DNA of 41,580 nt from an uncultured bacterium (GTDB lineage Bacteria; Chlamydiota; Chlamydiia; Chlamydiales; SM23-39): positions 7,905 to 49,484 of the forward strand of contig CAYOMT010000002.1 in the NCBI GenBank assembly GCA_964405125.1, read 5' to 3'. Each line of letters opens with the position of its first letter. The first letter of the stretch is position 1. The position numbers and the translations under genes were made by a program. This document shows positions 6,412 to 22,702 of this stretch, piece by piece. The notes beneath the pieces are model-generated. The model was given only the letters and a program-made list of their open reading frames with translations. It was not told the DNA's origin and made no database searches.

Positions 6412-6540
6412 TGGAATGAACCCTCTTATTTGGGTTCATAATTTACTGCAATATTATTTTCAATGACAGACTCTAGATAATGTTTTTCTGTACATTATTT
6501 TTGATTTCTTTTAGAATCTTTGGATAAAAATGGGGTTTTC

Positions 6541-7542: not shown

Positions 7543-7552
7543 GGGGCGTAAG

Positions 7553-9029: not shown

Positions 9030-9986
9030 TCAATAGGAGTTATACGAGTGGAATGAAATCGATTTTGTATAGGGGTTAAAATTTCCTTTCCCTTCGAGAA
9101 TAGGGGCGAGATCCCGTTTTCGGACAAAGGTGCTATCGTTGAAAAAATAGAGCTGGATAAAGCTATCGGGATAGAAAGATACGACAAATTGGGGGTAGCT
9201 TTCATTTTCTGCAAAAGCGGAAGCTTGGTTTTTATCCATTAAATCCATGACCGCCTGAAACCAGGGTCTGTGGTGAAGATTTTCGATGTGTTGCTTGAAG
9301 TGTCTGAGCTTGCTTTTTTCAAATAAGGTTGTATGGCTGACAAAAGAAAAGGGTCCTTTGGCTGCTTCTCCAATGAGCTTTTTATAAACATCCCGATAGG
9401 GCTGGTGGTATTCGTCGGAGCATTGGAAAATAGTTCGGCCTTTATACGTGTATGTCTGCGGGCGAATGAGGAGGGTATCTGTATCGATCACGAGGACATG
9501 CTCTGCCTCGCAAATTGTATCGCAGCTTAGTTTTAAGAATTGTTGGAAAAGCCAGCCTCTTCGATCGCATCCTCCGCACTCGGAAGGGAAGTAATGGATG
9601 TCTTTCATTTTAATTGGCAACACCGTGTTTTCATCGACGAAAATGCAGCCGAGTTCTTGCGCAAGAGAGATGATTTTAGGGGTGGGGGGAGCGACGATAT
9701 ATATATGGAGAATGGGGTGGAGGAGATTTTTTTTTGCAAAGGCAATTGTGTGGGGAATCATTTCCAAATCTTTTTCCACTGTCGGAATGAGGATGTCGAT
9801 GGGAATATCGCTCGGCTCAAATGGATAGAGAGTTTCAAAATCTTTTGAAAATTGTCTAATTTGCTCCAATCTTTTCTGATGATTCGAGGAAAATCCGTCG
9901 AGATGGGTCAGACGATACATTATATTCTCTGCGCCAAGACTCAGAGTGGTTAAAAATAAACAGGATAAAATCATTAATTTTTTCAT
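9030..9986 (-). CDS. Exported GT-A-like nucleotide-diphospho-sugar transferase (DUF6492-like)
   Basis: 318 aa. Leader is MKKLMILSCLFLTTLSLGA. A DxD-like motif occurs in VLVIDTDTLLIRP. RRGWLFQQFLKLS resembles the GW..QQ..KL motif I associate with DUF6492-type transferases. Confidence 0.45.
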   Translation of the reverse strand: MKKLMILSCLFLTTLSLGAENIMYRLTHLDGFSSNHQKRLEQIRQFSKDFETLYPFEPSDIPIDILIPTVEKDLEMIPHTIAFAKKNLLHPILHIYIVAPPTPKIISLAQELGCIFVDENTVLPIKMKDIHYFPSECGGCDRRGWLFQQFLKLSCDTICEAEHVLVIDTDTLLIRPQTYTYKGRTIFQCSDEYHQPYRDVYKKLIGEAAKGPFSFVSHTTLFEKSKLRHFKQHIENLHHRPWFQAVMDLMDKNQASAFAENESYPQFVVSFYPDSFIQLYFFNDSTFVRKRDLAPILEGKGNFNPYTKSISFHSYNSY

Positions 9987-9995: not shown

Positions 9996-11087
9996 TTAAA
10001 TTGAGAGATTATTAAGTTCGGATAAGACCATGATTTTTACGAGTTCCTCAAAAGAGGTTTTGGGCTCCCAATGAAGGGTTGTTTTTGCTTTTTCGGCATC
10101 GCCCAATACAAAATTTACATCTGTAGGGCGAAAGAAAACGGGGTTGATTTTTACGACAATCGATCCTGTTTTTTTATTGATCCCTACTTCATCGACTCCT
10201 TCGCCTTCCCATAGAATATCGATGCCGACTTGTTTGAAGGCGAGTTCGATAAATTCTCGGACGGAATGGCTTTTCCCTGTAGCAATCACGAAATCTTCGG
10301 GTTTTTCTTGCTGGAGCATAAGCCACATGGCTTCGACATAGTCTTTTGCATAGCCCCAGTCTCTTTGCGCATTTAAGTTGCCGAGATAACAAATTTCGGT
10401 CGATCCTTGGGAGATGCGGGCTGCGGCTCGGGCAATTTTTTTGGTGACAAAATTTTCTCCTCGGAGAGGGGATTCGTGGTTGAATAAAATGCCGCAGCAA
10501 GCAAAAAGGCCAAAGGCTTCTCGATAATTGATGGTCATCCAATGGGCGAAGAGTTTGGAAATTCCATAGGGAGCCCGAGGGTGGAAGGGGGTGGCTTCAG
10601 CCCTTGGATTTTCTTGAGAAAGGCCGAATAGCTCGCTTGTGGAGGCTTGATAAAACTTCACTTTGTCCACCAAGTTCAATTGCTTGATGGTTTCCAAAAT
10701 CCGCAAGGTTCCAAGGGCATTGATTTCGGCAGTGTATTCCGGCTGTTCAAAGGAGATGTGCACATGGCTTTGCGCTGCGAGATTATAAATCTCGTCTGGT
10801 TGAATTGTGCTGATGAGGGAGATGATTGTGCTTGTGTCGCTTAAATCTCCATTGTGAAGAAAAAATCTTCCCTGATTTGCCGGCTCGAGGCAGATGCGCT
10901 CGATATGGCAAGAGTGGTTGGAAGAATGTTTTCTTTTTACACCATGTACCTCGTAGCCTTTTTCGAGAAGAAATTCCGTCAGATACAATCCGTCTTGTCC
11001 CGTGGCGCCGAAGATCAATGCCTTCTTTGGTTCAGAAGGCTGAGCTATGAGTTGAAAAGCTGTAAGAAAAAAAAATAAATATCGCAT
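9996..11087 (-). CDS. gmd: GDP-mannose 4,6-dehydratase with a ~20-aa hydrophobic N-terminal extension
   Basis: Motifs: KKALIFGATGQDGLYLTEFLLEKGYEVHG, YQASTSELFG, and PYGISKLFAHWMTINYREAFGLFACCGILFNHESPLRGENFVTKK (classic Gmd block). The extension MRYLFFFLTAFQLIAQPSEP precedes the Rossmann motif. Confidence 0.92.
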   Translation of the reverse strand: MRYLFFFLTAFQLIAQPSEPKKALIFGATGQDGLYLTEFLLEKGYEVHGVKRKHSSNHSCHIERICLEPANQGRFFLHNGDLSDTSTIISLISTIQPDEIYNLAAQSHVHISFEQPEYTAEINALGTLRILETIKQLNLVDKVKFYQASTSELFGLSQENPRAEATPFHPRAPYGISKLFAHWMTINYREAFGLFACCGILFNHESPLRGENFVTKKIARAAARISQGSTEICYLGNLNAQRDWGYAKDYVEAMWLMLQQEKPEDFVIATGKSHSVREFIELAFKQVGIDILWEGEGVDEVGINKKTGSIVVKINPVFFRPTDVNFVLGDAEKAKTTLHWEPKTSFEELVKIMVLSELNNLSI

Positions 11088-11127
11088 GCCGGGAAAATGT
11101 AAGCTGGGAAATTTTTTTTTGCAAGAT

Positions 11128-12162
11128 TTATTTTTTATAAGGAGCCGCCTTGGAGAGAATCTGATGCATCCAATAATTGTGGGTCAGTTTTTCTCGATAT
11201 GCAGGATTTGTGGAGGCGTCTCCATATTGAGCCAGCCATTTTTCCATGTTTTGCGGTGTGATTTCAGACCAATCTTGGACGATGACGACAGGAAGACCTT
11301 CATAAAGGGGATCGAGCGGAGATGTTTTGACAATGACAATGCAACCCAAGATGAGATCCTCCCAAGTGCGGTGGCAATCCAAGCCGTTTCCGTGAGGACT
11401 AATAGAGAAAGCATATTGGCCTTTGATTTGCCATAGAGAGGATCTTTTTACCCATTTTCCATGGTGAATGAGCCCGGTATGCAAAAGGCGGGAAAAAATA
11501 GTTGTCCGATCCTCTCCAAACTGAAGATGGCGTCTATGTTCTCCATCTCGCATGCTGTCGGAAAACTGAAAATCGACAAACGCCATTTTTTTTCGAAGGT
11601 AAGTTGGCGGAGATTTTTGAAAAGTGTGTTTCAATAAAGATTCTTGTTCGAGAGGGGATCCAATCTCGCCCCATCCTCCCTGAGGTCCTTTGTAGGCAAT
11701 TGTATGAAAATCGAGCCCGATGGGGAAGTGAGTGACTTTTGGGTGTTTTCCTTTGATATCGCAATTTTGCGCGAAGATATGAATGACTCTTTCGTCAGAG
11801 AGGAATTTTTCTAGACACTCTTCGGTCAATCCCGATTGGGAAGGAAAGGATTCATCCCCATCGTTGATCAATAAAACGAAGGGGGCGGTTATGTTTGGAA
11901 GGACTTGATGATAGAAATGGGAGACAAAACGACACTGGAGCCAAATGATATCGCCGCTTTGAATCGGCTCATAAACATATTTGGGGAAGAGGGGAGAATA
12001 ATTTGTCTCAAAAAATTGAACAGGATTTGTTTTTGTCCATTTGTCACAGAAAGGGAGGATGCCGCAATTCCAAATGAAATCGGTTTTTTCCCAAGAGTTT
12101 TTCCGAAAATCTCGGCAATAAAGGTTTGAAAAAAGGCAAAGAGCAAAAAATAGAATTCTCAT
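11128..12162 (-). CDS. Exported exostosin-like (GT47-like C-terminal motif) glycosyltransferase, paralog of 28507..29385
   Basis: The track ORF extends to 12429. I use the ATG at 12160-12162, which overlaps the upstream stop as ATGA and gives the leader MRILFFALCLFSNLYC. The C-terminal block ISPHGNGLDCHRTWEDLILGCIVIVKTSPLDPLYEGLPVVIVQDWSEIT resembles the exostosin P.G....S.R..EA...GCIPV motif. Confidence 0.45.
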   Translation of the reverse strand: MRILFFALCLFSNLYCRDFRKNSWEKTDFIWNCGILPFCDKWTKTNPVQFFETNYSPLFPKYVYEPIQSGDIIWLQCRFVSHFYHQVLPNITAPFVLLINDGDESFPSQSGLTEECLEKFLSDERVIHIFAQNCDIKGKHPKVTHFPIGLDFHTIAYKGPQGGWGEIGSPLEQESLLKHTFQKSPPTYLRKKMAFVDFQFSDSMRDGEHRRHLQFGEDRTTIFSRLLHTGLIHHGKWVKRSSLWQIKGQYAFSISPHGNGLDCHRTWEDLILGCIVIVKTSPLDPLYEGLPVVIVQDWSEITPQNMEKWLAQYGDASTNPAYREKLTHNYWMHQILSKAAPYKK

Positions 12163-13061
12163 TTTCTTAAAGACTCCTTCTGTGTTTGAAGTAGGCCTGC
12201 AACAGTTACATGTACATAATCCCATCCATTCGGGAACTTTCCTTCTTTTTTGGCCTTTGTAAGGAAATTGAGAGAGCGGAAGGTGAAAAGTTCTGGATGG
12301 CGGAGGAGGATGTCTATGAATTCGCGATCGAGCACATCTGCTTTTTTCCCCCGTGCATAGTATCCATTTGGGCTCACTCGGTGTAGGTAGCAATGATCTT
12401 TTAAATAGGCAATCGGGAATCCATGGCATGCTTGCTCAAGCCCGAAATAAAATGTATCTAAAACATATAAATGGGAGTATCCGCCGACAGCATCAAAACT
12501 TTTGCGCGTGAAGAGGTAATTGCCGGAGGCGCAAGGGTGATTGCAGGTTTTTACGATATCAGAGGCGGTATACCTACCTTCGGGGGCCGAGAACTCCCAG
12601 GAGTTTGTCAATTTTAGGTTGCCTTCGAAAAATTGGAGTATCGCAAAGCACGCCGCATCGACTTTTTCTTCATCTAAAAAATCAATGAGATCTTGGATGT
12701 CGTTTGGGTTTGCCAGCAGATTGTCCGAGTCGAGACAAAAGATGAGATCCCCTTGAGAATTTTTGACGCAAGTATTTCGGGCAGGCCCCCCGCCTTGATT
12801 TTCTCGATGCTGAAGAACTTTCATTTCCGGATGCTCTTCTTTGATTTTTAAAAGGAGCTCATAGGTATGGTCTATCGAACCATCGTCTGTGCAGATCAGC
12901 TCAAAGGGGACTTTTAAGTTTTGCCGAAAAATGGATTCGATCGACTCTTCTACAGTTTTTTCGCAGTTGTAACAGGGCATAATGAAAGAAAGGAAATGGG
13001 TTTCTTCCCCAGCAAGCAGGGGCAAGGCAAAACCGAAGAAGATTTGGATCCATCTCTTCAT
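12159..13061 (-). CDS. Family 2 glycosyltransferase (GT2) with an N-terminal leader
   Basis: Motifs: LSFIMPCYNCEKTVEESIESIFRQ, ELICTDDGSIDHT, GGGPARNTCV, and LIFCLDSDNLL (DxD). The start is either ATG 13061 (MKRWIQIFFGFALPLLAG, ATGA overlap with the upstream stop) or ATG 13076. Confidence 0.85.
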   Translation of the reverse strand: MKRWIQIFFGFALPLLAGEETHFLSFIMPCYNCEKTVEESIESIFRQNLKVPFELICTDDGSIDHTYELLLKIKEEHPEMKVLQHRENQGGGPARNTCVKNSQGDLIFCLDSDNLLANPNDIQDLIDFLDEEKVDAACFAILQFFEGNLKLTNSWEFSAPEGRYTASDIVKTCNHPCASGNYLFTRKSFDAVGGYSHLYVLDTFYFGLEQACHGFPIAYLKDHCYLHRVSPNGYYARGKKADVLDREFIDILLRHPELFTFRSLNFLTKAKKEGKFPNGWDYVHVTVAGLLQTQKESLRK

Positions 13062-13717
13062 TTGTAAACAGCCCATAATTTATACCCTGAATTGGAAGTG
13101 AGAAAAAAAACTGTTTTATTTTGAGAGGAGAAAAAGTGATTTACGGCATCTGCGACAGGCTCCATCCAGTAATCATCTCCGATCATGAGACAACCTGTTT
13201 TCAATTTCGGAAGCCATGCAGATAGATCGGCGATGACAGCCTCGTAACGATGATCCCCGTCGACGAAGATGCAATCGATGGATTCATCGGGAAAGGCATC
13301 TGCGGCAACGGTAGAAAACTCTCTCAGTAAACAGCACCTTTCTTCAAAAGGTTTGAGACGAACCTCTTTGACCCACTTATAGAGATAGTCGAAATTCTCT
13401 TGGCCTTTCAGCCCGCTGTAGCTCTCTACATCTTTAGAAAAGCCGTCATTCGGGTCATAGGCGTATAGATAAGGATCGATTCCAAAATAGGTTTTTATCT
13501 CGGTGTTCTGAAGGAGGGTTTCCGCATGGCCTCCTAAAGCAACTCCAATTTCTACGATATTTTGATATCCTTTTTGGCGGATGATCTTGGGTAAAACATC
13601 GTAATAAATACTGGGCCAGCTATTGGTCTCTATGTGCCTTTCTATTCCTCGCAAAACTTCATCGGGAATAGAAGCGAATAGGAAAATAGGAAAAAAGAGA
13701 AGCCGAAATAAAATCAT
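13058..13717 (-). CDS. Class I SAM-dependent methyltransferase (Methyltransf_24/O-MT-like) with a leader
   Basis: IVEIGVALGGHAETLL (motif I), IDCIFVDGDHRYEAV, and GCLMIGDDY. Leader is MILFRLLFFPIFLFAS. ATGA overlap with the upstream gene at 13714-13717. Confidence 0.7.
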   Translation of the reverse strand: MILFRLLFFPIFLFASIPDEVLRGIERHIETNSWPSIYYDVLPKIIRQKGYQNIVEIGVALGGHAETLLQNTEIKTYFGIDPYLYAYDPNDGFSKDVESYSGLKGQENFDYLYKWVKEVRLKPFEERCCLLREFSTVAADAFPDESIDCIFVDGDHRYEAVIADLSAWLPKLKTGCLMIGDDYWMEPVADAVNHFFSSQNKTVFFLTSNSGYKLWAVYK

Positions 13718-14760
13718 GGCTCTCCCAAGAAAAGGTTCAGTTGTTCTTCAATCCAAGGGTATAGTTTTTGCAAACCGGATTCTAAGGTCATAGAGGGCTC
13801 CCAGTTGAGCGCTTCTCGAATGAGGGCGTTGTCCGATTTTCTCCCGCGGACGCCTTCAGGACCCTGGATGTTTTGAATGTAAATGTGTTTGCCTGCAATC
13901 TTTGCAATCAGATAAGCGAGATCGTTGATTCCGATCATTTCTTCGGAGCCGACATTCAAAATGGGCGGTTTTTTTTCGGCAAGAAGGATCCTTCTTATTC
14001 CTTCGATACATTCATCGATGTAGAGAAAAGAGCGCGTCTGATCTCCTTTGCCCCAGATCTCTATCGTCCCTCCCTCTTTTGCCGCTGCAATTTTGCGGCA
14101 TAAAGCTGCGGGGGCTTTTTCCCGGCCGCCTTGCCATGTCCCTTGGGGGCCAAAAATATTATGAAATCGGGCGATGCGGACATCCATTCCGTAATCTTTA
14201 GCATAGGCTTGGTAAAGGCGTTCGCTAAAAAGTTTTTCCCAGCCGTATTCTGTGTCGGGATCGGCTGGATAGGCAGAATTTTCTGCACACTTAGGATTGT
14301 CCGGACTCAGCTGATTGTAAAGAGGATAGATGCAAGCAGAAGAGGAGTAGAATGTTTTATCTACCCCAATTTGGCGGCATTTTTCCAATACGTTTAAGTT
14401 AATTAAAGCAGAATCATGCATGATTTCTGCATCGTGGCAAGAGATAAATCCCATGCCCCCCATGTTTGCAGCAAGCTGGCAAACCTCATTGATAGGCCCT
14501 GGAAGATTTGAAAAGGCTTTTTCCACCTCTTCTAGATACCGAAGATCCGCGATGATGAATTCATCGGCAGAGGTAGGGCCGAATTCGGGGTATTTAAGAT
14601 CTATGCCTCTCACCCAATATCCTTCTTCTTTATATCGCTCAACAAGGTGATAGCCAATAAATCCGCCGGCCCCGCAAACAATGGCAGTTTTTTGGGTCGG
14701 AGTCGCAAATGTGGTTGTCCAGATTCCAAGGAGGATAAAAAAAACAAATTTATTAATCAT
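13714..14760 (-). CDS. GDP-mannose 3,5-epimerase (plant GME-type SDR) with an N-terminal leader
   Basis: Motifs: AIVCGAGGFIGYHL, LAANMGGMGFI, FYSSSACIYP, and RFHNIFGPQGTWQGGREKAPAALCRKI. These closely parallel the plant GME blocks (..ADMGGMGFI.., ..RFHNIYGP.GTWKGGREKAPAAFCRK..). Leader is MINKFVFFILLGIWTTTFA. No in-frame ATG, GTG or TTG lies between the leader and the Rossmann motif. Confidence 0.8.
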   Translation of the reverse strand: MINKFVFFILLGIWTTTFATPTQKTAIVCGAGGFIGYHLVERYKEEGYWVRGIDLKYPEFGPTSADEFIIADLRYLEEVEKAFSNLPGPINEVCQLAANMGGMGFISCHDAEIMHDSALINLNVLEKCRQIGVDKTFYSSSACIYPLYNQLSPDNPKCAENSAYPADPDTEYGWEKLFSERLYQAYAKDYGMDVRIARFHNIFGPQGTWQGGREKAPAALCRKIAAAKEGGTIEIWGKGDQTRSFLYIDECIEGIRRILLAEKKPPILNVGSEEMIGINDLAYLIAKIAGKHIYIQNIQGPEGVRGRKSDNALIREALNWEPSMTLESGLQKLYPWIEEQLNLFLGEP

Positions 14761-14772
14761 TATTTTGTCCGA

Positions 14773-15930
14773 TTATTGTTTTTCGTAATTAAAAAGATTT
14801 CCGTATTTTTCTTGCAGTAGATGGATGACTTCTTCTGTATCGCGGATCGTAACAGGTTTTCCAGATTCGGCGACGTGTTTTGCGACTTCTACTTTCTGAG
14901 AAGCTTCGATGATTTTCACGGGGCAATTTGGTTTGTAGGAGACATCTTCAAAGATGTATTCCTCGAGATTTTGTTCTAAGAGCTTTTTTGCCATGTAGAT
15001 AGCGTGCAAATCATTGACCTCGTCTGTCGCTTTGAAGAGGAGGGGGTTGATTTCTTTGAGCGCTGCATAACGGGAGAGCCCTCGGTTATCTCGAGTGAAG
15101 CAAGGGCCTCCAAACCCAAATCCGGGGAGAAGGCATTTGGATCCCACTCTTTGATCCTTTCCTATGGCATCTAAGATAGCTACTTTATCAGCGCCGGGAG
15201 TTTCTTCTGCAATATCGCCAATTAAATTCGCGAATGCGATTTTTGCTGTGACAAAGCAATTCAAGCCAAGTTTTGCAATTTCTGCGCTTTCTACAGACAT
15301 GCGAGCAATGTGAGGCGTGTTTAAGCAAACCGATTCATAAACAGTTTGCAGGAAGTCTCCCGCTTCTATAGAACCCTCTCCAATGAGGACCATATCCGGA
15401 TTTCTCAGCCCATTGATGATGGCTCCTTGAGCGATGAAGGGAGGATTGTAGCTAATGTCGATATTTTCACAGTCTTTGAGTAGATTCCAGGCGGTGTTTC
15501 TGACATAGCCAGGAAATAAAGTAGAGCAAATCACGATTCTTTTATTGGAAATTTTGAAAGAATTGATCTCTGTCAGAAGCTTTGAAAGAGCTGTAAAATC
15601 GTAGCCATCGACTCCTGTTGTCGTGGAAACTAAGATAAAATAAGAATCGGAAAATGCGAGGCCTTCTTCTAGAGAAGTTGTCGCTTTGAAATGGTGGCTT
15701 GTCTCTAGATAATCATTGATATAGGGTTCTGGAGAATGGAGCGTCTTGGTGTTGAGTTTAGAAACGTATTCTGAAGAGACATCGACTCCCAAAACGTTGT
15801 AACCTGCTTTTTCCAAGCTCAACGCTAAAGAAAGTCCGAGACGTCCGATTCCAATCACAGTTAGATTTTCGGCGAAAACAACGGAAAAAAAACACACAAA
15901 AATTAATAAAAATTTAGAATAATTTATCAT
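14773..15930 (-). CDS. UDP-glucose/GDP-mannose dehydrogenase family nucleotide-sugar dehydrogenase with an N-terminal leader
   Basis: Rossmann motif LTVIGIGRLGLSLALSLEKAGYNVLGVD. Catalytic Cys block GFGFGGPCFTRDN. 385 aa. Leader is MINYSKFLLIFVCFFSVVFA. First gene of the 7-gene minus-strand operon 15930->9030. Confidence 0.8.
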   Translation of the reverse strand: MINYSKFLLIFVCFFSVVFAENLTVIGIGRLGLSLALSLEKAGYNVLGVDVSSEYVSKLNTKTLHSPEPYINDYLETSHHFKATTSLEEGLAFSDSYFILVSTTTGVDGYDFTALSKLLTEINSFKISNKRIVICSTLFPGYVRNTAWNLLKDCENIDISYNPPFIAQGAIINGLRNPDMVLIGEGSIEAGDFLQTVYESVCLNTPHIARMSVESAEIAKLGLNCFVTAKIAFANLIGDIAEETPGADKVAILDAIGKDQRVGSKCLLPGFGFGGPCFTRDNRGLSRYAALKEINPLLFKATDEVNDLHAIYMAKKLLEQNLEEYIFEDVSYKPNCPVKIIEASQKVEVAKHVAESGKPVTIRDTEEVIHLLQEKYGNLFNYEKQ

Positions 15931-16167: not shown

Positions 16168-16977
16168 ATGCGGATTGCGCTTCTTAGTCTTTGTTTGGGT
16201 GTTTCTCTTTTTGCAGTGAATGATGAGGCGCAAAGCCTTGTGAGACATAGCCGCACTATGCAAGATACCGGGAATCAAGCGCCGACGCCTTATTATTATT
16301 TTGGAATGCCTTCGGAGAGTCTTTCTATCGCATCTCGTTTTTTACCCGATAATCCGGTGGTTGTAGTTGGGGGCGCTTTCAATGGAAGAGAGAGTTCCGC
16401 CATCGCCCATTTCTGGCCGAGAGGGCATGTTCATGCGTTTGAGCCGGTGAAGCAAATTTATGAGGTTCTTGTCGCGAATACAAAATCGATCCGAAACATC
16501 ACTCCGTATAGAGCAGCTTTAGGGAACCAAGTCGGATCTCAATTGATTTATCTTTCGACAGAATACGAGGATTTAAATCACATTTCCATGTCGAGTTCTC
16601 TTTTGCCTCCAAAAGAGCATCTCCTTTATTCCGGAACTTTATTTCAAGGAGGAGAACTTGTCTCGGTGACTACGCTCGATGCTTGGGCGAAAGAAAAAAT
16701 GGTCGATCAAGTCGATATGCTTTGGCTCGATATGCAAGGATTTGAGCTGCCGGCTTTGAAAGAAGGGCTCCAAGTGCTTTCCAAGGTTTCCGTAGTTTTA
16801 ACAGAGCTAGAATTTGTCGAAGCCTATGAAAATCAACCCCTTTACCGCGAGGTAAAATCTTGGCTCGAAGAACAAGGTTTTGTGCTGATTGCAGGCAATT
16901 TTACTTTCCCCAAAGCGCCGAATCAATGGTTTGGCGACGGAGTTTTTGTTCGAAAAGAACTTCTCGGAATCAGGTGA
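16168..16977 (+). CDS. FkbM-family methyltransferase with a leader
   Basis: Motifs: VVVVGGAFNGRESS, HVHAFEPVKQIYEVLVAN, YRAALGNQVGS, and VDMLWLDMQGFELPALKEG (FkbM-type ..D.EG.E..L.G). Leader is MRIALLSLCLGVSLFA. A TAGGAGA Shine-Dalgarno sequence lies upstream. Confidence 0.8.
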   Translation: MRIALLSLCLGVSLFAVNDEAQSLVRHSRTMQDTGNQAPTPYYYFGMPSESLSIASRFLPDNPVVVVGGAFNGRESSAIAHFWPRGHVHAFEPVKQIYEVLVANTKSIRNITPYRAALGNQVGSQLIYLSTEYEDLNHISMSSSLLPPKEHLLYSGTLFQGGELVSVTTLDAWAKEKMVDQVDMLWLDMQGFELPALKEGLQVLSKVSVVLTELEFVEAYENQPLYREVKSWLEEQGFVLIAGNFTFPKAPNQWFGDGVFVRKELLGIR

Positions 16978-16981
16978 TCCT

Positions 16982-17983
16982 ATGTATCGAAAATTCCTTC
17001 TGATTTGCTGTTTTTTATTTAGCGCAGATCTGTTTTCTTATGGATCTTTATCTGATTTACCCTCAAAGCATTCTTTGAGTTATGAAGGGGGAGACCGATT
17101 TGGAGATAGGGTATTGGTTTATGCGCAGGCCCGGTATCTCAGCTACATCACCTCGACTACATTTCTCTACAGGCCTTTTATTTATAGCGACACTTTAACA
17201 ATTGAGTTTCAGGCATTTCCTTATGAGGCTTATGCATGTCGCTATCATCGAGTCTTCCATATTTTTTCTCTTGAGACATTGACAGAGTTTTTTCGCATTC
17301 TCCGCGATCCTCATTCGCCTCCCACTTTATTTATCCTCGATTATTTTCCTTCCGATATTTCTGAATGGGATTTTGATGCGACGAGATCTTTGTTTTTAGA
17401 TATTCCGTGGGAAGATCCGGGATTTTCCTCGTATTTGAGAAAGAGTCTCTCGCCTCGGATTCACATACCTGATTTACGAAGCCAAGATCGTCTGAATGTG
17501 GCTATTCACGTTCGTACTTTAAGCGGTAGAGACACGGTAGAGTCTTCTTTTATGACTCTTCCTTTAAAACATCCGGGTTCGGATTATCACAAGCGGCAAA
17601 TTGCTCGGGTTTATGAATGGAATCTCAGGAAACCGTTGTATGTTTTCATCTTTAGCGACACGAAGAATCCTTCTCATGTTTTAAGGGATTTTCAAGAGAG
17701 TTTTCGAGGTAAAGATATTGTATTCGGGATTCAATATTTAGAATCTTCGGATACGAATTATGCCGTCCAAGATTTTTTTGCGATGCAGAAATTTGATGTG
17801 CTCATAGCGACTCAATCGAATTTTTCAGCCATGGCTTCCCGGGTAGGATCTCTGAATATGGTGTTCTTGCCTGTGCATGTGCAGGGAGTGTACCCGAATG
17901 CGCGAATAGATCGCACGCGGGTAATTAGTAAAAAAACCGACTGGTTTCCCTATGAGTTCGACATTATTTTTAAAGACCGGTAG
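16982..17983 (+). CDS. Fucosyltransferase-superfamily (GT11/GT23/POFUT-like) glycosyltransferase, divergent paralog
   Basis: The track ORF starts at 16889. The ATG at 16982 gives the leader MYRKFLLICCFLFSADLFS. Motifs: YEGGDRFGDRVLVYAQA (compare GGLGNQ.FQYA of GT11), LNVAIHVRTLSGRD (HxR..D motif), and IATQSNFSAMAS. Confidence 0.5.
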   Translation: MYRKFLLICCFLFSADLFSYGSLSDLPSKHSLSYEGGDRFGDRVLVYAQARYLSYITSTTFLYRPFIYSDTLTIEFQAFPYEAYACRYHRVFHIFSLETLTEFFRILRDPHSPPTLFILDYFPSDISEWDFDATRSLFLDIPWEDPGFSSYLRKSLSPRIHIPDLRSQDRLNVAIHVRTLSGRDTVESSFMTLPLKHPGSDYHKRQIARVYEWNLRKPLYVFIFSDTKNPSHVLRDFQESFRGKDIVFGIQYLESSDTNYAVQDFFAMQKFDVLIATQSNFSAMASRVGSLNMVFLPVHVQGVYPNARIDRTRVISKKTDWFPYEFDIIFKDR

Positions 17984-17984: not shown

Positions 17985-19028
17985 TTAATAGCCGCCGTAA
18001 GTAAATACGAGGCGGGGATTGATGAATAATTTGTTGTGCCCTTTCGCGATCATGGAAGCGTGAAAGGTGACATGCTCGCATACCGATGGGTATTGATATA
18101 CAAAGAAATTCATCCTCCAAATTAAACTGTCGCCGAGCATAATTCCCACTTCAGGATCTTTAATTTGAGGAAGGTGGGGTTTTGGAGTGTCGATTGCAAC
18201 GAAGGATTTGGCTTTGCGGTTTTTGTCTTGGTAAACCCTAATTTGAGGGTGGTTTGGGTTTTTGTCGATGATCTGTTTTGCGATCAGTCCTAAATCTTTT
18301 GTGGCAATCCCTGAATATCTACAGCCGACAATGGATGATTTTTTATAAATTCCGCATCCTCCAAAAGCAGAGTAGACAGGGTACCAGTCATCGGTTTGTT
18401 TGAGGGAAAAAGAGCGCGGCATATACCACCAGTAATCTCCCAATAATTCGGCTCCAATCGGGTAGGCTTCATTGCGAAAAGCATACCAGTCCCAATAGGC
18501 TTTTCTAGGGTCGACTCCATAAGCAAAAACAGCATCCCATTCTATTTCTGTTTGAAAAGCTTCCACAATGCCTGCGAATGCAGGGGCGATTTTAAAATCC
18601 ATATCCAACCAAATTACGTGGCTAAAATTCTCGTATGCGTCGGACATGGCTATATCCAAAACAATATTTCTCGCTCTTGCAATGGCTTCCGGATGAAAAA
18701 AAGAGCCGTCCGGTTTTATGTTGACAATCGATTGATCCAATTCGGAGTAGGGAACTTTTTCTGTTTTTAGATGCAATCTTGGGTTTTTTTTCGCCCATTG
18801 CTGCAGAATATCGAGGGTTCTGTCTGTGGAATCATTTTCATAGACGATGATTCGATAGTCTTCAAAAAGAGAGCCTATCCGTTCGATGATCTGGATTGTG
18901 TAGGGCAGGGGGACTTCTACATTTTTGCAAACTCCGCAGATCAGAACTTGCTTCGGTACCATAGAGAAGAGAGATCCGTAGGTTAAAAGAAAAAGGGCGA
19001 TTGTATTTCTGATCAAAGGGGTTTTCAT
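17985..19028 (-). CDS. GT-A-fold (GT2-like) glycosyltransferase with a leader
   Basis: Motifs: VLICGVCKNVEVPLPYTIQ, RIIVYENDSTDRTLDILQQW, ARARN, and VIWLDMDF (DxD). Leader is MKTPLIRNTIALFLLTYGSLFS. The stop is 1 nt from the convergent stop of the previous gene. Confidence 0.55.
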   Translation of the reverse strand: MKTPLIRNTIALFLLTYGSLFSMVPKQVLICGVCKNVEVPLPYTIQIIERIGSLFEDYRIIVYENDSTDRTLDILQQWAKKNPRLHLKTEKVPYSELDQSIVNIKPDGSFFHPEAIARARNIVLDIAMSDAYENFSHVIWLDMDFKIAPAFAGIVEAFQTEIEWDAVFAYGVDPRKAYWDWYAFRNEAYPIGAELLGDYWWYMPRSFSLKQTDDWYPVYSAFGGCGIYKKSSIVGCRYSGIATKDLGLIAKQIIDKNPNHPQIRVYQDKNRKAKSFVAIDTPKPHLPQIKDPEVGIMLGDSLIWRMNFFVYQYPSVCEHVTFHASMIAKGHNKLFINPRLVFTYGGY

Positions 19029-19053
19029 GGAAGCTCCGTTTTTTTTTGCCAGA

Positions 19054-19084
19054 AACTTGTCATAGGCCGATTTCTTAAGTCAAT
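19054..19084 (-). promoter_or_regulatory. Conserved promoter/operator-like element (copy 1) upstream of 17985..19028
   Basis: The minus-strand reading is ATTGACTTAAGAAATCGGCCTATGACAAGTT. It matches 25 of 31 positions with the element at 26397-26427. It contains a TTGACT -35-like hexamer and ends about 26-28 nt before the ATG. Confidence 0.4.
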
Positions 19085-19182
19085 CATTTTTTTTACACTC
19101 TGAGAGACTTTCGTTGAGTTTCTTGCTTTTTTTTCAAAAATATTATAAGGTTTGCGGTCAATTAAAGATTTATGGAGATTTT

Positions 19183-19770
19183 ATGAGGAACTTTCTTTTT
19201 GCTTTATCTTGTTGCGCTGCGCTGTCTCCCTTGCTGTCAAATGTGGGACCGCAGGGTTTTGGCGAGTTTCGTCAAAATTATTTTGTTGAGACAGGCACTT
19301 TTGGCGGGGATGCGATTCAGCTTGCTTTGAATGCAGGCTTTACAAAAGTCCGCTCCATTGAATTCGATGCGAATCTTTGCCAAAATGCGCAGCGGCGCTT
19401 TTCGAACAACCCCAATGTTCGGATCGATCATGGAGATTCTTCGATCGATTTATGGAGATTGATTCAGGATCTTGATGAACCTGCGACATTTTGGCTGGAT
19501 GCTCATGTCTGTCCTCCGCGCACAGACGGGGGAAAAAATTGCCCTTTACTCGAAGAACTCGAACAAATCAAACGGCATCCAATTAAAACCCATATTATTT
19601 TGATCGATGATATGCATTGTTGCAATACTGAACTTTTTGATTTTATGAATCAAAGTCATTTCATTGAAAAATTATTGGAAATCAATCCAGATTACGAGAT
19701 TCGTTATGTGGATGGTGGAAATGATGGCGAATATAAAAACAACATCATGGTTGCGATCCCTCCGAAGTGA
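19183..19770 (+). CDS. Class I SAM-methyltransferase-like protein with a leader; paralog of the N-terminal half of 25201..26367
   Basis: The track ORF starts at 19114. The ATG at 19183 gives MRNFLFALSCCAALSPLLS. Motifs: YFVETGTFGGDAIQ (motif I-like), RSIEFD, ATFWLDAH, PLLEELEQIKRHPIKTHIILIDDMHCC. Confidence 0.55.
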   Translation: MRNFLFALSCCAALSPLLSNVGPQGFGEFRQNYFVETGTFGGDAIQLALNAGFTKVRSIEFDANLCQNAQRRFSNNPNVRIDHGDSSIDLWRLIQDLDEPATFWLDAHVCPPRTDGGKNCPLLEELEQIKRHPIKTHIILIDDMHCCNTELFDFMNQSHFIEKLLEINPDYEIRYVDGGNDGEYKNNIMVAIPPK

Positions 19771-19850
19771 ATATGAAAGGGTGTTTTTCAGAAATTTATT
19801 GTAAAACACCCTCGATTCTGTACTTTCTTAATCTTTTCAAAGGGAACTCC

Positions 19851-20843
19851 ATGAAACTTTCAGGATTTTTGGTTTTTAGACATGTATCTTTCTCTCTTTT
19901 GTTTTTTTGTTTTTCGCTCTCTGCATTATCTCCTCAGAAAAATTTGATTACTTATGAATTTAGCGGGGGCAGGTTTGGCGATAACCTTTTGAGCTATCTT
20001 CATGCCAAATGGATTTCCTATCGGTATCAGATCCCGCTGCTTTACAAACCGTTTCCCTATTCTTCGCAGCTAAAGCTTCATGATGTGGAGCTGCAATATT
20101 GTCCGGAGAATTATCCGGCATATAGGAAAGAAGTATATATGCGGGATGGTTTCTGCATGAATTTTTTTCAGGATAAATCCTTGTGTCTTTATATTTGTCC
20201 TTATTTTCCTGAAAATTCCTGGGAACAGATTCATTCAAGAGGACCTTCGGGCGAGCCGTGGTATCACTTTTTAGTGGATTGGCAAGATGTTGAATTTCGC
20301 GAGATTGTGAAAAATCTCATTTCCTTGAAACGGCAGTATCCCTTGACAGTGCCTCCCCAAGATAAAATTAATATCGCCATTCACTTTCGCGAAGGGGGTG
20401 GATACGACTCAGAGGATGTCATTTTTGACTTCATGACAAAAATCCCTCCTTTGGATTTTTATATTAAAGGACTGAGTCGGGTAATCAAGCTTTTCCCCGG
20501 AAAATCTTTTTATTGCCATCTGTTCACAGATGCTTTGAATCCACAGCAAACAATTCAAATATTTAGAGAATCTCTTCCAGAGGAAGTGGATATTACGTTT
20601 GGGTGCAGAGAAAAGGGGAATGTGCATAATAAGAATGTGCTCGAAGATTTTTTTTCCCTATTCGAATTTGACGTGCTTGTTCATCCCCAATCTAATTTTA
20701 GTTTGATTCCTTCTCTCATTCACGATTATGCCATTACTTATTCTCCCTTTTCTGCAAGGAGGGATGGTATAAATGTAGTGATTGATCAGGTCAAACTTGA
20801 AATCAACGAGGGGTTATATGAGCAATTGCTGCACAAACCCTGA
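19851..20843 (+). CDS. Fucosyltransferase-superfamily glycosyltransferase, close paralog of 26519..27523
   Basis: The ATG at 19851 follows AAGGGA and gives MKLSGFLVFRHVSFSLLFFCFSLSALS. Motifs: EFSGGRFGDNLLSYLHAKW, INIAIHFREGGGYD, and HPQSNFSLIPSLI. Confidence 0.55.
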   Translation: MKLSGFLVFRHVSFSLLFFCFSLSALSPQKNLITYEFSGGRFGDNLLSYLHAKWISYRYQIPLLYKPFPYSSQLKLHDVELQYCPENYPAYRKEVYMRDGFCMNFFQDKSLCLYICPYFPENSWEQIHSRGPSGEPWYHFLVDWQDVEFREIVKNLISLKRQYPLTVPPQDKINIAIHFREGGGYDSEDVIFDFMTKIPPLDFYIKGLSRVIKLFPGKSFYCHLFTDALNPQQTIQIFRESLPEEVDITFGCREKGNVHNKNVLEDFFSLFEFDVLVHPQSNFSLIPSLIHDYAITYSPFSARRDGINVVIDQVKLEINEGLYEQLLHKP

Positions 20844-20851
20844 GACTTTGG

Positions 20852-21808
20852 TCAATATTTTTTGATGGGGATGGATTGGATCCCTTCAAGATTTGCCCTT
20901 TTTGCAATGATCAAGCCATCTCCGGAACAACTTTCTCCGGTTGTATGTGTGGCGAGAATTGTGAGGCCATGGGCATTAAAAAAATCTAAGCAAGCAAAAT
21001 GCGCTCCCTTGTGATCGTGGGTAGAAATGACAAAATAATCAATATCCTGAAGATGGCGGATGGATGAGAGGAGCATTTCATATTCGGAGCCCTGCACATC
21101 TGCATGTAAAATGTGTACGTGATCGATTTTTTCCTTATCCATAAAGTCATCCAGCGAGATGCAGGAAGCCCCCTCTAGGTTGGGATCGTCATCAAAGACT
21201 GTTCCAACAAACCCCCGATAAAAAAATCCTGTCTTATCATTGAGTTCGAAATTTTTTCTTCCCACTTCAAGCCGTTTGGGATCTGGCTCGATTAAATAAT
21301 TTTTGGCGCCCTTCACTTCCGAGGCAAACCATAGAGAATAATAAGCCCAGTAGGAGCCGACCTCAATCATCGTTGCATTTTCCGGAATGTATTTTAAAAT
21401 TTCATAAAAACACTTTTCTTCTTGAGGTTCATGATGTCCTTTGAGACCGCAGATTACATCAGTAAGCCATTGGGAATCATAATAGGAATTTAAAACGACT
21501 TTGACTCCATTGTGCATGAGTTGATAGGGGATCTGTCCAGGAATGTTAAAAATTTCTCCTGCATGAGGATGTTTTGGGATATAGTCCGCATCATCCCCTG
21601 TGACAGTGAGAAGAGCGCGCTGCATTTGATAGGAAGGATCTCGAAGATTGCTCGGGTTGGAACTCATGAATGCCTTCCATCGATTTCTGTGTTCCGCCAT
21701 CTCTTCTTGCGTATAAATGATTGAGCCAGAGTTTGAATTGGGCATTTTGACATCTTGAGAAAGGCTCGCGGCGAATAAAAATAGAGAATAACTCATTGTT
21801 TGCAGCAT
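20852..21808 (-). CDS. FkbM-like methyltransferase with a leader
   Basis: Motifs: MIEVGSYWAYYSLWFA, NYLIEPDPKRLEVGRKNFELN, and IDHVHILHADVQGSEYEMLLSS. Leader is MLQTMSYSLFLFAASLS. Confidence 0.6.
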   Translation of the reverse strand: MLQTMSYSLFLFAASLSQDVKMPNSNSGSIIYTQEEMAEHRNRWKAFMSSNPSNLRDPSYQMQRALLTVTGDDADYIPKHPHAGEIFNIPGQIPYQLMHNGVKVVLNSYYDSQWLTDVICGLKGHHEPQEEKCFYEILKYIPENATMIEVGSYWAYYSLWFASEVKGAKNYLIEPDPKRLEVGRKNFELNDKTGFFYRGFVGTVFDDDPNLEGASCISLDDFMDKEKIDHVHILHADVQGSEYEMLLSSIRHLQDIDYFVISTHDHKGAHFACLDFFNAHGLTILATHTTGESCSGDGLIIAKRANLEGIQSIPIKKY

Positions 21809-21916: not shown

Positions 21917-22702
21917 ATGATGAAAAGACTGATTTTTTTATTGCTTCTATTGAGTGGCAATCTAAGCGCAAATACAATGGAAAAATTCGCATATTTCCAT
22001 GTCCCCATGAGACCGGATGGGAAAATAGACATTCCAATTGAGATTCGACACATCAAATTGGATATTGGTTTGTCTTATAGCGCTCCCATGTCTCAGCAGT
22101 GGCTATCTAAGGAAAACGATTTGATGGTCTTTGGATTTGAACCGGATCCAACATCTGTTGAGACAATCAAAAGGGGCGCTGTGAAACAACATCCGGTTCA
22201 CGGAGATCCGTTGGAAGCGAGATATGTGGGGGATAGGATGTTTATTTTCCCTTGCGCTCTTGGGCTCCAGTCGGGAGGAGTGGCCAAGTTTTTTGTGACA
22301 AAGGAAAGCTGTGGATGTTCTAGCCTTTATTACCCGGTATTTTTCGAAGTGGAAAAGGTTCTTGAAGTCCCTGTTTTTCGACTCTCTGATTTCTTTGATC
22401 TCATGCCGTTTGATACCCATCCGGTGATTGATTACATCAAGATAGATGCGCAAGGTTCAGATCTCGATATTTTAAAAAGCGCAGGCCAGTATTTAGAAGA
22501 AAGAGTGGTCTATGTGACGGCTGAACCAGAAAATGATCAGTATAAAGAGACTTCAAATTCAGAGGGCGAGATGGATCGCTACATGAGAAGTATAGGATTT
22601 CGAAGGGATCATTCTCAAGACACCGGAGATCCTACCTATTTGAATCTTAGATTTTTAGATTATGTTCAGAAAAACAAGATTAAAATTTATCAAAGGGGTT
22701 AG
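21917..22702 (+). CDS. FkbM-like methyltransferase with a leader
   Basis: Motifs: IKLDIGLSYSAP, VFGFEPDPTSVETIK, FPCALGLQSG, and IDYIKIDAQGSDLDILKSAG. Leader is MMKRLIFLLLLLSGNLSA. Confidence 0.65.
   Translation: MMKRLIFLLLLLSGNLSANTMEKFAYFHVPMRPDGKIDIPIEIRHIKLDIGLSYSAPMSQQWLSKENDLMVFGFEPDPTSVETIKRGAVKQHPVHGDPLEARYVGDRMFIFPCALGLQSGGVAKFFVTKESCGCSSLYYPVFFEVEKVLEVPVFRLSDFFDLMPFDTHPVIDYIKIDAQGSDLDILKSAGQYLEERVVYVTAEPENDQYKETSNSEGEMDRYMRSIGFRRDHSQDTGDPTYLNLRFLDYVQKNKIKIYQRG

Follow-up and report, generated by a model that had tools for sequence, protein, structure and literature searches.

The window, a 41,580-nucleotide stretch of DNA from a chlamydia-like bacterium, contains a 23-gene island at positions 9030–30895. 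Every island protein, ordinarily cytosolic enzymes among them, begins with a short, positively charged N-terminus (net positive n-region in 22 of the 23) followed by a hydrophobic core and small residues (Table 1). These leaders are, in our assessment, probably genuine Sec-type signal peptides, and the pathway in its entirety, with its GDP-sugar, glycosyl- and methyl-transferase steps, would be exported with them. If true, this would be a whole sugar-nucleotide pathway outside the cytoplasm, not described before in bacteria; no prior report of such an exported bacterial pathway was found in the literature.

Gene content of the island

The island encodes a GDP-mannose 4,6-dehydratase (Gmd), a GDP-mannose 3,5-epimerase (GME)-like protein, a nucleotide-sugar dehydrogenase, at least four glycosyltransferase-type proteins and about nine SAM methyltransferases. 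The rest comprises three weakly GT11-like paralogues (family 'unkA') and several proteins without assigned function. Gmd matches the equivalog profile TIGR01472 with 522 bits (cut-off 415), aa 21–359 aligning to profile positions 1–340. Homologues of I06 at 70–75% identity carry the JGI name GDP-D-mannose 3',5'-epimerase. The dehydrogenase contains the N-terminal and central Pfam domains only, without the C-terminal domain PF03720, and retains the catalytic Cys motif GFGGPCFTRD. The resemblance of unkA to GT11 in hhalign is weak (7.5% probability), with IHVR and SNFS motifs aligned; the AF2 model of unkA (I09) was unusable. I16 has no PDB sequence match, and I20 has neither a family nor a PDB match. 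Within the island, no Wzx/Wzy, ABC exporter, initiating phosphoglycosyltransferase, lipid-carrier gene or polytopic protein was found.

Table 1. Island genes and delimited leaders, with positions in the window.
Feature	Positions	Strand	Assignment	Leader
I01	9030..9986	-	DUF6492 protein, Pfam PF20102	MKKLMILSCLFLTTLSLGA, then EN
I02	9996..11087	-	GDP-mannose 4,6-dehydratase (Gmd)	N-terminal extension of 20 aa
Gmd leader	11028..11087	-	codons 1–20	MRYLFFFLTAFQLIAQPSEP
I03	11128..12162	-	GT47/exostosin-like glycosyltransferase	MRILFFALCLFSNLYC
I04	12159..13061	-	GT2 glycosyltransferase, Pfam PF00535 (111 bits)	MKRWIQIFFGFALPLLAG, then EE
I05	13058..13717	-	Methyltransf_24 SAM methyltransferase, Pfam PF13578; ATGA overlaps GME stop	MILFRLLFFPIFLFA
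I06	13714..14760	-	GDP-mannose 3,5-epimerase-like SDR (GME); Pfam Epimerase from aa 27	present
GME leader	14704..14760	-	codons 1–19	MINKFVFFILLGIWTTTFA
I07	14773..15930	-	nucleotide-sugar 6-dehydrogenase; TIGR03026, 204 bits (cut-off 189.8)	present
Dehydrogenase leader	15871..15930	-	codons 1–20	MINYSKFLLIFVCFFSVVFA, then EN, then β1 (LTVIGIGRLG)
I08	16168..16977	+	FkbM methyltransferase, Pfam PF05050	MRIALLSLCLGVSLFA, then VN
I09	16982..17983	+	unkA (paralogues I12, I19), possibly GT11-like	MYRKFLLICCFLFSA
I10	17985..19028	-	GT2-like/CAP59-like glycosyltransferase (Pfam)	MKTPLIRNTIALFLLTYGSLFS
I11	19183..19770	+	small methyltransferase-like protein, weak MT matches	MRNFLFALSCCAALSPLLS
I12	19851..20843	+	unkA paralogue	MKLSGFLVFRHVSFSLLFFCFSLSA
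I13	20852..21808	-	FkbM methyltransferase	MLQTMSYSLFLFAASLS (weakest)
I14	21917..22702	+	FkbM methyltransferase	MMKRLIFLLLLLSGNLSA
I15	22706..23482	+	FkbM methyltransferase, GTG start	(M)LRYFSVFLCVFKTVFG
I16	23484..24302	+	no family assigned	MTNSKIGFFLSLTSVFVTGLIG
I17	24307..25143	-	FkbM methyltransferase	MRYPKNLCLACLVFTATNLFA
I18	25201..26367	-	two-part methyltransferase-like protein	MKKIYITASLLILFISRNALA
I19	26519..27523	+	unkA paralogue	MKVLKDFGVQWLASLFLIFYVPCQA
I20	27520..28503	+	no family assigned; ATGA overlap with I19	MNKLIVFCFLFFGPVLAHA
I21	28507..29385	+	GT47/exostosin-like (A075L-like, weak RXYLT1_C)	MLRSVFLFLLPFFLWSV
I22	29382..30155	+	no family assigned; ATGA overlap with I21	MTWVSRFVLSFFLFSGASLQA
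I23	30173..30895	+	no family assigned	MFKKSFFSMMIVFSANLFS

Architecture of the leaders

A sequence-only reading had placed a leader on all 23 island proteins, and this holds, as do the five leaders it quoted, all present as written. The M-(K/R)-x start that it gave throughout fails for I13, which lacks K/R; I15 has a GTG start; the cores span 9–17 aa rather than 12–18. Its N-terminal extension ahead of the Rossmann or catalytic domain is borne out by Pfam and NCBIfam, in which the catalytic domains begin behind the leader (from aa 21–24 for Gmd, aa 27 for GME and aa 22 for the dehydrogenase). The flanking genes that it described as leaderless (7553–8836, 30933–31814, gatA, gatB and dapF) are so, along with the ABC ATPase and DUF3604 genes.

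Over the full length of each protein, the 12-residue hydrophobicity peak falls within residues 1–12 in 22 of the 23 cases (chance about 4% per protein). An automatic, deliberately liberal classifier (heuristic criteria with a permissive −3/−1 rule) called 21/23 island proteins signal peptide-like, the two misses being explained by thresholds. The same classifier called 142 of 926 ORFs (15.3%) in a background of 78 ordinary Gmd loci and 0/20 in the leaderless sister cluster L082.

The n-region carries a charge of +1 or +2. The N-terminal flank of the core is more positive than the C-terminal flank in 17/23 proteins and less so in one, the same bias being found in 57–72% of homologues; the first charged residue past the core is acidic in 15/23. 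Neither a Tat RR motif nor a lipobox was found in the island leaders. Among 83 leader-bearing dehydrogenase homologues, A/S/G occupies position β1−3 in 63, with E/Q at β1−2, N at β1−1 and P upstream; cleavage at the predicted site would yield an N-terminus equal to that of the leaderless homologues. This anatomy fits putative cleavable Sec signal peptides, removal by signal peptidase I being most likely. Export of the whole pathway, one of three options that the sequence-only reading offered with no preference, is the best fit to the positive n-region, short h-region, small −3/−1 residues and N>C charge, and it is on these features that we infer it.

Predicted export and membrane topology

The leaders would direct all 23 proteins across the inner membrane, so that the island would encode a glycan-building, O-methylating pathway operating outside the bacterial cytoplasm. 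Its site may be the periplasm or, after type 2 secretion or vesicle release, the lumen of the host-derived vacuole or the host cytosol; Sec-dependent chlamydial proteins do get to the inclusion lumen and host cytosol (PMC7143554, PMC3107777). Such a pathway would need no lipid carrier or flippase, which agrees with the absence of such genes from the island. It would draw on nucleotide sugars, NAD(P) and SAM from the host, met outside the inner membrane by an energy-parasitic intracellular bacterium. Chlamydiae take up host NAD (PMC5381601) and SAM (PMC3104491), so both reach the periplasm, and UDP-glucose is fed into the C. trachomatis inclusion by a host nucleotide-sugar transporter (PMC4829429). 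A point against export is that no exporter or GDP-mannose source was identified for the pathway.

Cofactor supply also weighs against export in part. Since Sec translocates unfolded chains, NAD(P)+ loading would have to occur outside the cytoplasm. In its favour, Gmd and GME recycle bound NAD(P)+ and thus have no net cofactor requirement. The dehydrogenase consumes net NAD+, and RmlD-like 4-reductases (a weak family assignment), which bear leaders in the related loci L084 and L092, would consume NAD(P)H.

Uncleaved anchors were a further option of the sequence-only reading. Signal anchors of this kind (N in/C out) would also translocate the enzymes but hold them on the inner membrane's outer face, a membrane-bound assembly line in the periplasm. 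Export and anchoring predict the same charge bias and positive n-region, the uncharged stretches between charged residues in homologues (median 17–18 aa) are near transmembrane length, and co-localisation of the 23 enzymes at the membrane would aid pathway flux. The strictly hydrophobic island cores (9–17 aa, median about 13), however, fall below the 19 aa of real transmembrane helices in the flanks, and the dehydrogenase keeps A/S/G and the upstream Pro at a fixed distance from β1. The linker to the first core β-strand measures only 2–7 residues in the dehydrogenase, GT2 and GME, so no stem remains, and such anchoring is unlikely.

We know of no bacterial precedent for an anchored Gmd or GME. 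A tether at the cytoplasmic face would keep the catalytic domains, as a metabolon, in the compartment that supplies GDP-mannose, NAD(P)H and SAM; substrates and cofactors are all cytoplasmic in ordinary bacteria. Cysteine content speaks for it: leader-bearing Gmd and GME show no Cys depletion relative to leaderless homologues (about 7.7 Cys in GME with or without a leader), the decrease in the dehydrogenase is marginal (8.6 vs 9.35 in leaderless homologues, p = 0.03) and its catalytic thiol motif is kept, which is unexpected in an oxidising periplasm. The related locus L013 combines leaderless ManC and Fcl, the latter acting directly after Gmd, with an adjacent Gmd that bears a leader if the first ATG is used and with leader-bearing GT10, GT2 and GT32; export would there divide the GDP-fucose route between compartments. 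The N-out/C-in orientation, however, requires an uncharged N-terminus and positive charges behind the helix, whereas K/R precedes the core in 22/23 island proteins, the C-flank is the more positive in only one and the first post-core charge is mostly acidic. The cores are also too short to form a hairpin, and no flippase or exporter gene in the island would move a cytoplasmic product out. This arrangement is as improbable as the outer-face anchors, although it has a precedent in UXS16, a Golgi UXS of tobacco whose transmembrane segment lies at the N-terminus: predicted to be lumenal, it proved to be cytosol-facing by protease protection, and topology inferred from sequence can therefore err (PMC10631120).

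Coding status and distribution of the leaders

GME offers no alternative in-frame ATG, GTG or TTG ahead of GAGGFIG, as the sequence-only reading had it, and none over codons 1–45 as a whole; the Gmd TTG at codon 24 exists but is not the sole alternative, a second TTG lying at codon 34. I03 has no alternative start codon; its ATG is preceded by GAAGGAG and overlaps the I04 stop. Five leader ATGs overlap the stop codon of the upstream gene (ATGA), including that of I04 with the I05 stop; in the longer I04 ORF, the PF00535 domain starts from aa 30. The leader follows an internal ATG of the longest ORF in eight genes (I03, I04, I09, I11, I12, I16, I18 and I19), and I13 has further ATGs at codons 5, 22 and 37.

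Across 11 orthologue pairs shared with a syntenic sister species, leaders stay in frame at 24–90% identity, compared with 84–92% for mature parts; dN/dS is 0.31 in leaders and 0.056 in mature parts, and an uncharged residue is kept in 57 of 76 leader substitutions. Leader sequences change more quickly than the rest of the protein yet remain constrained. The sister Gmd leader is MRYLFLFFITFQLTAQPSEP; I10 has a hydrophobic leader in both species (24% identity, the mature part being 84% identical), and the I01 orthologue in the sister contig L090 has a likewise hydrophobic N-terminus.

Among the best homologues, leaders occur in 86/119 for Gmd, 94/119 for GME and 83/117 for the dehydrogenase. Their sequences are unrelated but of the same character, ahead of an invariant β1 strand, and the trait changes 3–5 times on the trees, compared with 19–30 times when shuffled. 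In nine loci (L081, L084 of Babeliales, L086–L089, L091, L092 and L013), nearly all glyco-genes bear leaders and housekeeping neighbours none. The Parachlamydiales MAG locus L082 has the same GME, dehydrogenase, GT10/GT11 and methyltransferase families, including an I11 homologue, all leaderless, plus a kinase and a nucleotidyltransferase. Leader presence goes by locus, as a pathway-level switch. Among 80 genome Gmd loci, a plausible leader occurs in only two, one further match being a spurious upstream extension. The leader-bearing loci belong to Chlamydiota, Babeliales and further MAG clusters.

Mis-called starts, also proposed in the sequence-only reading, or a hydrophobic-codon bias of an AT-rich genome might be suspected from the eight leaders that hinge on an internal ATG and from I13, with its alternative starts and a leader devoid of positive charge, but such an artefact has a negligible probability and is refuted, as far as sequence analysis reaches, by the lack of alternative starts in GME and I03, the ATGA overlaps, conservation in about 260 independent leader-bearing homologues, purifying selection with maintained hydrophobicity, locus-dependent presence, the background rate of only 15%, the rarity of leaders in the 80 genome Gmd loci, and the lack of leaders on cytosolic flank genes here and on housekeeping genes of six other loci.

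Comparison with known systems

The exported pathway proposed here resembles glycogen synthesis in the C. trachomatis inclusion lumen, a sugar-nucleotide-dependent polymer pathway outside the chlamydial cytoplasm, to which the recruited host transporter SLC35D2 supplies the nucleotide sugar (Gehre et al. 2016, PMC4829429). The sequence-only reading cited this secretion correctly, but the glycogen enzymes travel by type 3 secretion, and SignalP 4.1 assigns them no signal peptide (PMC4829429), so the route of the island proteins, with their Sec-like leaders, would differ. In the island, the chemistry comprises modification of GDP-sugars, assembly of a heteroglycan and O-methylation, and here the nucleotide-sugar interconversion enzymes themselves bear a leader.

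In the eukaryotic Golgi (type II glycosyltransferases, nucleotide-sugar transporters and membrane-bound UXS-like SDRs), an N-terminal hydrophobic segment likewise abuts the catalytic or Rossmann domain, and glycans are made straight from nucleotide sugars with no lipid carrier. The families overlap in GT47/exostosin and weak RXYLT1-/CAP59-like matches in the window and in GT10, GT11 and GT92 in related clusters. Unlike Golgi enzymes, the island proteins have short cores, a small-residue cleavage motif and essentially no stem region, and their genes are bacterial and form operons with overlapping ATGA junctions. In eukaryotes, Gmd, GME and FkbM enzymes are not known from the Golgi lumen. The topology of UXS is contested (PMC10631120).

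Classical GDP-fucose, O-antigen and colanic-acid loci (manB-manC-gmd-fcl with Wzx/Wzy) share the equivalog-level Gmd, GT2 enzymes and a nucleotide-sugar dehydrogenase. Their enzymes are leaderless, and these loci bring with them ManB/ManC, Fcl, flippase, polymerase and initiating transferase genes, all of which the island lacks.

I03 and I21, with a profile match to chlorovirus PBCV-1 A075L/exostosin GT47 structures (E = 4e-27), are clear homologues of A075L; the comparison covers this GT47-like pair alone. The PBCV-1 toolbox comprises Gmd, glycosyltransferases and sugar methyltransferases and yields methylated, fucose/rhamnose-rich glycans independently of the host ER/Golgi. Chlorovirus glycosylation enzymes act in the host cytoplasm and are not known to bear Sec leaders.

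A plausible onward route is that of CPAF and cHtrA, which have an N-terminal Sec signal and are then released into the lumen of the inclusion or into the host cytosol (PMC7143554, PMC3107777); these are single proteases, whereas the island encodes a whole pathway of cofactor-dependent metabolic enzymes.

N-terminal leaders of the island proteins

The island consists of 23 consecutive genes on both strands of the window, and its products share a signal-peptide-like N-terminal leader. The initial methionine is followed by a hydrophobic stretch and then by small residues, with a lysine or arginine usually found within the first few positions. In 22 of the 23 proteins, hydrophobicity measured over 12-mers along the full chain peaks within the first 12 residues. 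The n-region has a net charge of at least +1 in 22/23, the exception being I13, the protein with the weakest leader (net charge 0); the same holds for 80–95% of about 260 homologue leaders. The sequence-only reading had described an M-(K/R)-x opening and a hydrophobic core of 12–18 residues. The basic residue is indeed usual, with I13 departing from the pattern, and the core is present, its uncharged length measuring 9–17 aa (median about 13) against 19 aa in the AcrB and permease helices of the same window. At least one candidate small-residue −3/−1 site occurs in every island protein, the rule being a permissive one. The five leaders quoted in that reading are exactly as written there.

An automatic, deliberately liberal classifier scored 21 of the 23 island ORFs as signal-peptide-like, the two misses being technical, against 0/20 in the leaderless sister cluster of a Parachlamydiales MAG (L082) and 142/926 ORFs (15.3%) in 78 ordinary Gmd loci. 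As had been claimed, no leader is present on the presumed cytosolic proteins of the flanks; flank lipoproteins and a HEAT-repeat protein do carry one.

Start codons and evolution of the leaders

The GDP-mannose 3,5-epimerase-like protein (GME) and I03 have no in-frame ATG, GTG or TTG within the first 45 codons, which for GME bears out what had been read from the sequence. The alternative TTG noted at codon 24 of Gmd exists, accompanied by a second at codon 34. In five gene pairs (I03/I04, I04/I05, I05/I06, I19/I20 and I21/I22) the ATG of the leader overlaps the upstream stop codon as ATGA.

Among the best database homologues, leaders are carried by 86/119 Gmd proteins, 94/119 GME proteins and 83/117 nucleotide-sugar 6-dehydrogenases (DH). 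These are unrelated in sequence and the same in character, and they stand ahead of the invariant Rossmann β1 strand; leaderless homologues begin M-x(3–9)-β1. On neighbour-joining trees the leader trait changes 5, 3 and 5 times, compared with about 26, 19 and 30 times when shuffled.

Two syntenic contigs of one sister species (L090 and L091, about 88% identity) supplied 11 orthologue pairs, in which the leaders are 24–90% identical and the mature parts 84–92%. The pooled dN/dS is 0.31 for leaders (222 codons) and 0.056 for mature parts (3149 codons), and 57 of the 76 leader substitutions exchange uncharged residues. The leaders evolve fast yet under constraint, as signal peptides usually do.

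Signal class

The N-terminal flank of the core is more positive than the C-terminal flank in 17/23 island proteins (five equal, one reversed) and in 57–72% of homologue leaders; the first charge past the core is acidic in 15/23. The core is separated from the first β-strand by 2–10 residues; the distance of 2–7 residues in DH, GT2 and GME leaves no stem. Leaders of the DH family all end at one set distance from β1, and A, S or G is found three residues before β1 in 63 of 83 sequences, with L/A/I/V two residues ahead of it (position −3 of the candidate site), frequent proline at −4/−6 of the site and E/Q-N after it. Cleavage at this site would leave the same N-terminus as in the leaderless homologues.

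By these heuristic criteria, the anatomy fits a cleavable Sec/SPase I signal better than a signal anchor, and the orientation is more likely N-in/C-out than that of a tether facing the cytoplasm. Tat export was rejected, as a twin-arginine motif occurs in 0/23 n-regions. Lipoprotein (SPase II) nature was likewise rejected: the lipobox [LVI][ASTVI][GAS]C is found in 0/23 island proteins and is present in three flank envelope proteins. Golgi-type anchors acquired together with eukaryotic genes were rejected because bacterial-type Gmd, GME, FkbM and GT2 proteins also bear leaders.

Gene content and surroundings

The island is bordered by an RND efflux operon and unknown genes on one side and by an amino-acid ABC transporter, dapF and gatBA on the other. 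The RND operon is syntenic in a sister species, so that two species at least have the island at the same chromosomal site. Searches of the window for tRNA genes and Rfam families found none.

Gmd (I02) matches the NCBIfam equivalog TIGR01472 with 522 bits (cut-off 415), aa 21–359 aligning to profile positions 1–340. In I06 the catalytic domain starts at aa 27; the protein gives a generic Pfam Epimerase match (139 bits), and its top NCBIfam match is Fcl, far under the cut-off. Its name comes from JGI labels on homologues 70–75% identical to it, and it contains SSACIYP and YGWEK motifs, which we take to be marks of GME; it is called here a GDP-mannose 3,5-epimerase-like protein. The catalytic domain of DH (I07) starts at aa 22. 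DH scores 204 bits with TIGR03026 (cut-off 189.8), the alignment ending at profile position 353 of 413; PF03720, the usual C-terminal domain of the three-domain architecture, was not found with Pfam. The Pfam and NCBIfam boundaries confirm that in all three enzymes the domain begins behind the leader. The GME-like epimerase and the C-terminally truncated DH are adjacent in five of seven loci examined, leader-bearing or leaderless alike (L082, L088, L091 and L092 in addition to the window), which suggests a conserved two-step route, possibly with a GDP-L-hexuronic acid as the putative product.

The island also encodes two GT2-type enzymes, six FkbM and three other methyltransferase-like proteins, a DUF6492 protein and four proteins without assigned function. 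The GT47/exostosin-like proteins I03 and I21 are paralogues (33% identical) and clear homologues of chlorovirus PBCV-1 A075L (E = 4e-27 to PDB 8avq/8asa/8q8i), a relationship that links the island to the glycosylation toolkits of giant viruses. The three paralogues of family unkA (I09, I12 and I19) have weak GT11-like motifs, with a weak hhalign comparison to GT11; the AlphaFold model (pLDDT 52.8) was left out of the fold search. PDB sequence searches with I01, I16, I20, I22, I23 and unkA, and an NCBIfam search with ten unknown island proteins, gave no match. Among the 23 genes, Pfam and NCBIfam revealed no ManB/ManC or Fcl and no flippase, polymerase, ABC exporter or initiating phosphoglycosyltransferase; none of the 23 encodes a polytopic protein.

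The second half of the island has a G+C content of 0.37–0.42 (0.44–0.49 in the flanks) and contains many paralogues (six FkbM, three unkA, I11 and I18), a pattern suggestive of acquired DNA that was then duplicated locally.

Location of features in the window and in compared loci
Feature	Location	Strand	Remark
RND efflux operon: outer-membrane factor, membrane-fusion lipoprotein, AcrB-type pump	window 720–6411	(−)	syntenic with sister-species L090 5534–11225
Leaderless island-border gene, no family assignment	window 7553–8836	(−)	homologue kept beside the island in L090
Island	window 9030–30895		
GT47/exostosin-like I03	window 11128–12162	(−)	
GME-like epimerase and DH	window 13714–15930		
Second island half	window 19000–31000		
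GT47/exostosin-like I21	window 28507–29385	(+)	
Leaderless island-border gene, no family assignment	window 30933–31814	(−)	Lys/Pro-rich, coiled coil possible
HEAT-repeat protein, 560 aa	window 37741–39423	(−)	outside the island; signal-peptide-like leader MTYFPLRCIIGVVWVQAFFGLSA followed by NEE
Sulfotransferases and ankyrin-repeat protein	L013 (OY970169.1) 5736–7787 and 1733–3982		
Dehydratase-like and 4-reductase-like proteins	L092 11515–13475; L084 12826–15951		

Distribution of leader-bearing clusters

Named relatives with leaders are Chlamydiales, Parachlamydiaceae and Chlamydiota MAGs, 'Verrucomicrobia'-labelled MAGs, in which an island-like cluster is present, and Candidatus Babeliales. 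Only two of the 80 genome loci recovered with Gmd have a leader on it: L002, a Chlamydiae MAG, and L013, a 1.4-Mb uncultured bacterium with ankyrin proteins, where the Gmd leader depends on the first ATG being the start.

Leader presence goes with the locus, a co-variation drawn from about a dozen loci, since a metagenome search with the dehydrogenase gave only four. Almost all glyco-genes bear leaders in L081, L084/85 (Babeliales), L086, L087, L088, L089, L091 and L092, and neighbouring MetK, NusB, EF-P, SHMT, aconitase, IscS and UvrD in related loci are leaderless. In the L082 cluster, GME, DH, a small methyltransferase-like family, GT10, GT11, GT25 and methyltransferases are all leaderless; a GHMP kinase and a nucleotidyltransferase are also present. 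Leader-bearing and leaderless members are both known for no fewer than five families (GME, DH, the small methyltransferase-like family, GT10 and GT11).

In L013, leaders are found on eukaryote-type, PAPS-dependent sulfotransferases (PF00685) and on a 749-aa ankyrin-repeat protein. Adjoining genes encode ManC and Fcl, both without a leader, and GT10, GT2 and GT32, all with one. Proteins resembling NDP-glucose 4,6-dehydratase, the UDP-GlcNAc 4,6-dehydratase PseB and RmlD-type 4-reductases carry leaders in L092 and L084, so that the phenomenon reaches beyond GDP-sugars, to NAD(P)H-consuming enzymes.

Export and its alternatives

In the best-supported reading, the complete enzyme set of the island would be exported by Sec and be active outside the bacterial cytoplasm, where nucleotide sugars would serve directly for building glycans that the set also methylates. 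That the proteins are exported and their leaders cleaved, where they act and where GDP-mannose comes from are what we infer here. The fullest version, which we put forward tentatively and hold to be somewhat doubtful, is a Golgi-like glycan factory in the periplasm or host-vacuole lumen, operating without a lipid carrier in Chlamydiota, Babeliales and related bacteria that live inside protists. Gmd, GME, dehydrogenases, reductases, glycosyltransferases and methyltransferases, once exported by Sec, would draw directly on the host's GDP-mannose, NAD(P)(H) and SAM; O-methylated glycans rich in deoxy-sugars would be placed on the bacterial surface or vacuole, and the leaderless sister clusters would represent the ancestral state.

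Gmd and GME recycle bound NAD(P)+. NAD and SAM are taken up from the host by chlamydiae (PMC5381601; PMC3104491) and must therefore reach the periplasm. In C. trachomatis, glycogen is made in the inclusion by secreted bacterial enzymes from UDP-glucose that a host SLC35 transporter brings in (PMC4829429), and some chlamydial proteins that depend on Sec arrive in the inclusion lumen and host cytosol (PMC7143554; PMC3107777).

Several observations count against export. Sec passage implies cofactor loading outside the cytoplasm, and there is a net cofactor need: DH uses NAD+, and the RmlD-like reductases of L084 and L092 (a weak assignment) would use NAD(P)H. Cysteine depletion is absent in leader-bearing Gmd and GME and marginal in DH, which keeps its catalytic thiol; in L013, leaders are missing from ManC and Fcl and present on the adjoining glycosyltransferases. 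Tobacco UXS, with an N-terminal TM segment, was predicted to face the lumen and was found by protease protection to face the cytosol (PMC10631120). This evidence keeps two anchor models under consideration: uncleaved anchors holding the enzymes towards the periplasm, which we regard as improbable given an anatomy favouring a cleavable signal, and a membrane tether facing the cytoplasm, to which the favoured N-in/C-out orientation leaves a similarly small chance. A start-codon or composition artefact, also suggested initially, is essentially excluded by the missing alternative starts of GME and I03, the five ATGA overlaps, the preserved character and rare changes of the leaders among homologues, and their dN/dS.

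In textbook bacterial glycobiology, nucleotide sugars are cytoplasmic and donors beyond the inner membrane are lipid-linked. No fewer than two unrelated phyla of intracellular bacteria have the leaders on nucleotide-sugar dehydratases, epimerases and dehydrogenases, on glycosyltransferases and on methyltransferases; if Sec export is confirmed, such conserved, pathway-wide leaders would break the rule, and the surrounding space would serve these bacteria as a compartment capable of metabolism and supplied by the host. The products would be candidates for surface or vacuolar glycans mediating uptake by amoebae or survival in them. Paired leader-bearing and leaderless clusters offer a natural experiment on the change of compartment of a whole pathway. 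In full-text literature searches, Sec-type leaders were nowhere described for Gmd, GME, glycosyltransferases or entire glycosylation clusters of Chlamydiae or Dependentiae, the glycogen pathway of C. trachomatis being the one precedent retrieved; absence from the library searched is no proof of novelty.

Comparison with known systems

Classical gmd loci have enzymes in common with the island and differ from it in leaders and locus composition. Wzx/Wzy- or ABC-dependent polysaccharide loci contain a flippase or exporter, a polymerase and an initiating transferase, unlike the island. Golgi glycosylation resembles the proposed pathway in its working mode; however, type II signal-anchor glycosyltransferases of the Golgi have a TM segment of about 17–22 aa and a stem, whereas the island cores are shorter and stemless. 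Closest to the proposal is the glycogen pathway in the inclusion lumen of C. trachomatis; both belong to one class, in which an intracellular bacterium moves sugar-nucleotide metabolism to its outside. The sequence-only reading had invoked this pathway, rightly as regards secretion of the enzymes into the inclusion; they leave by type 3 secretion and are devoid of a signal peptide (Gehre et al., PMC4829429), whereas the island N-termini are hydrophobic and Sec-like. Confirmed export would thus extend this single precedent to another secretion route and other chemistry.
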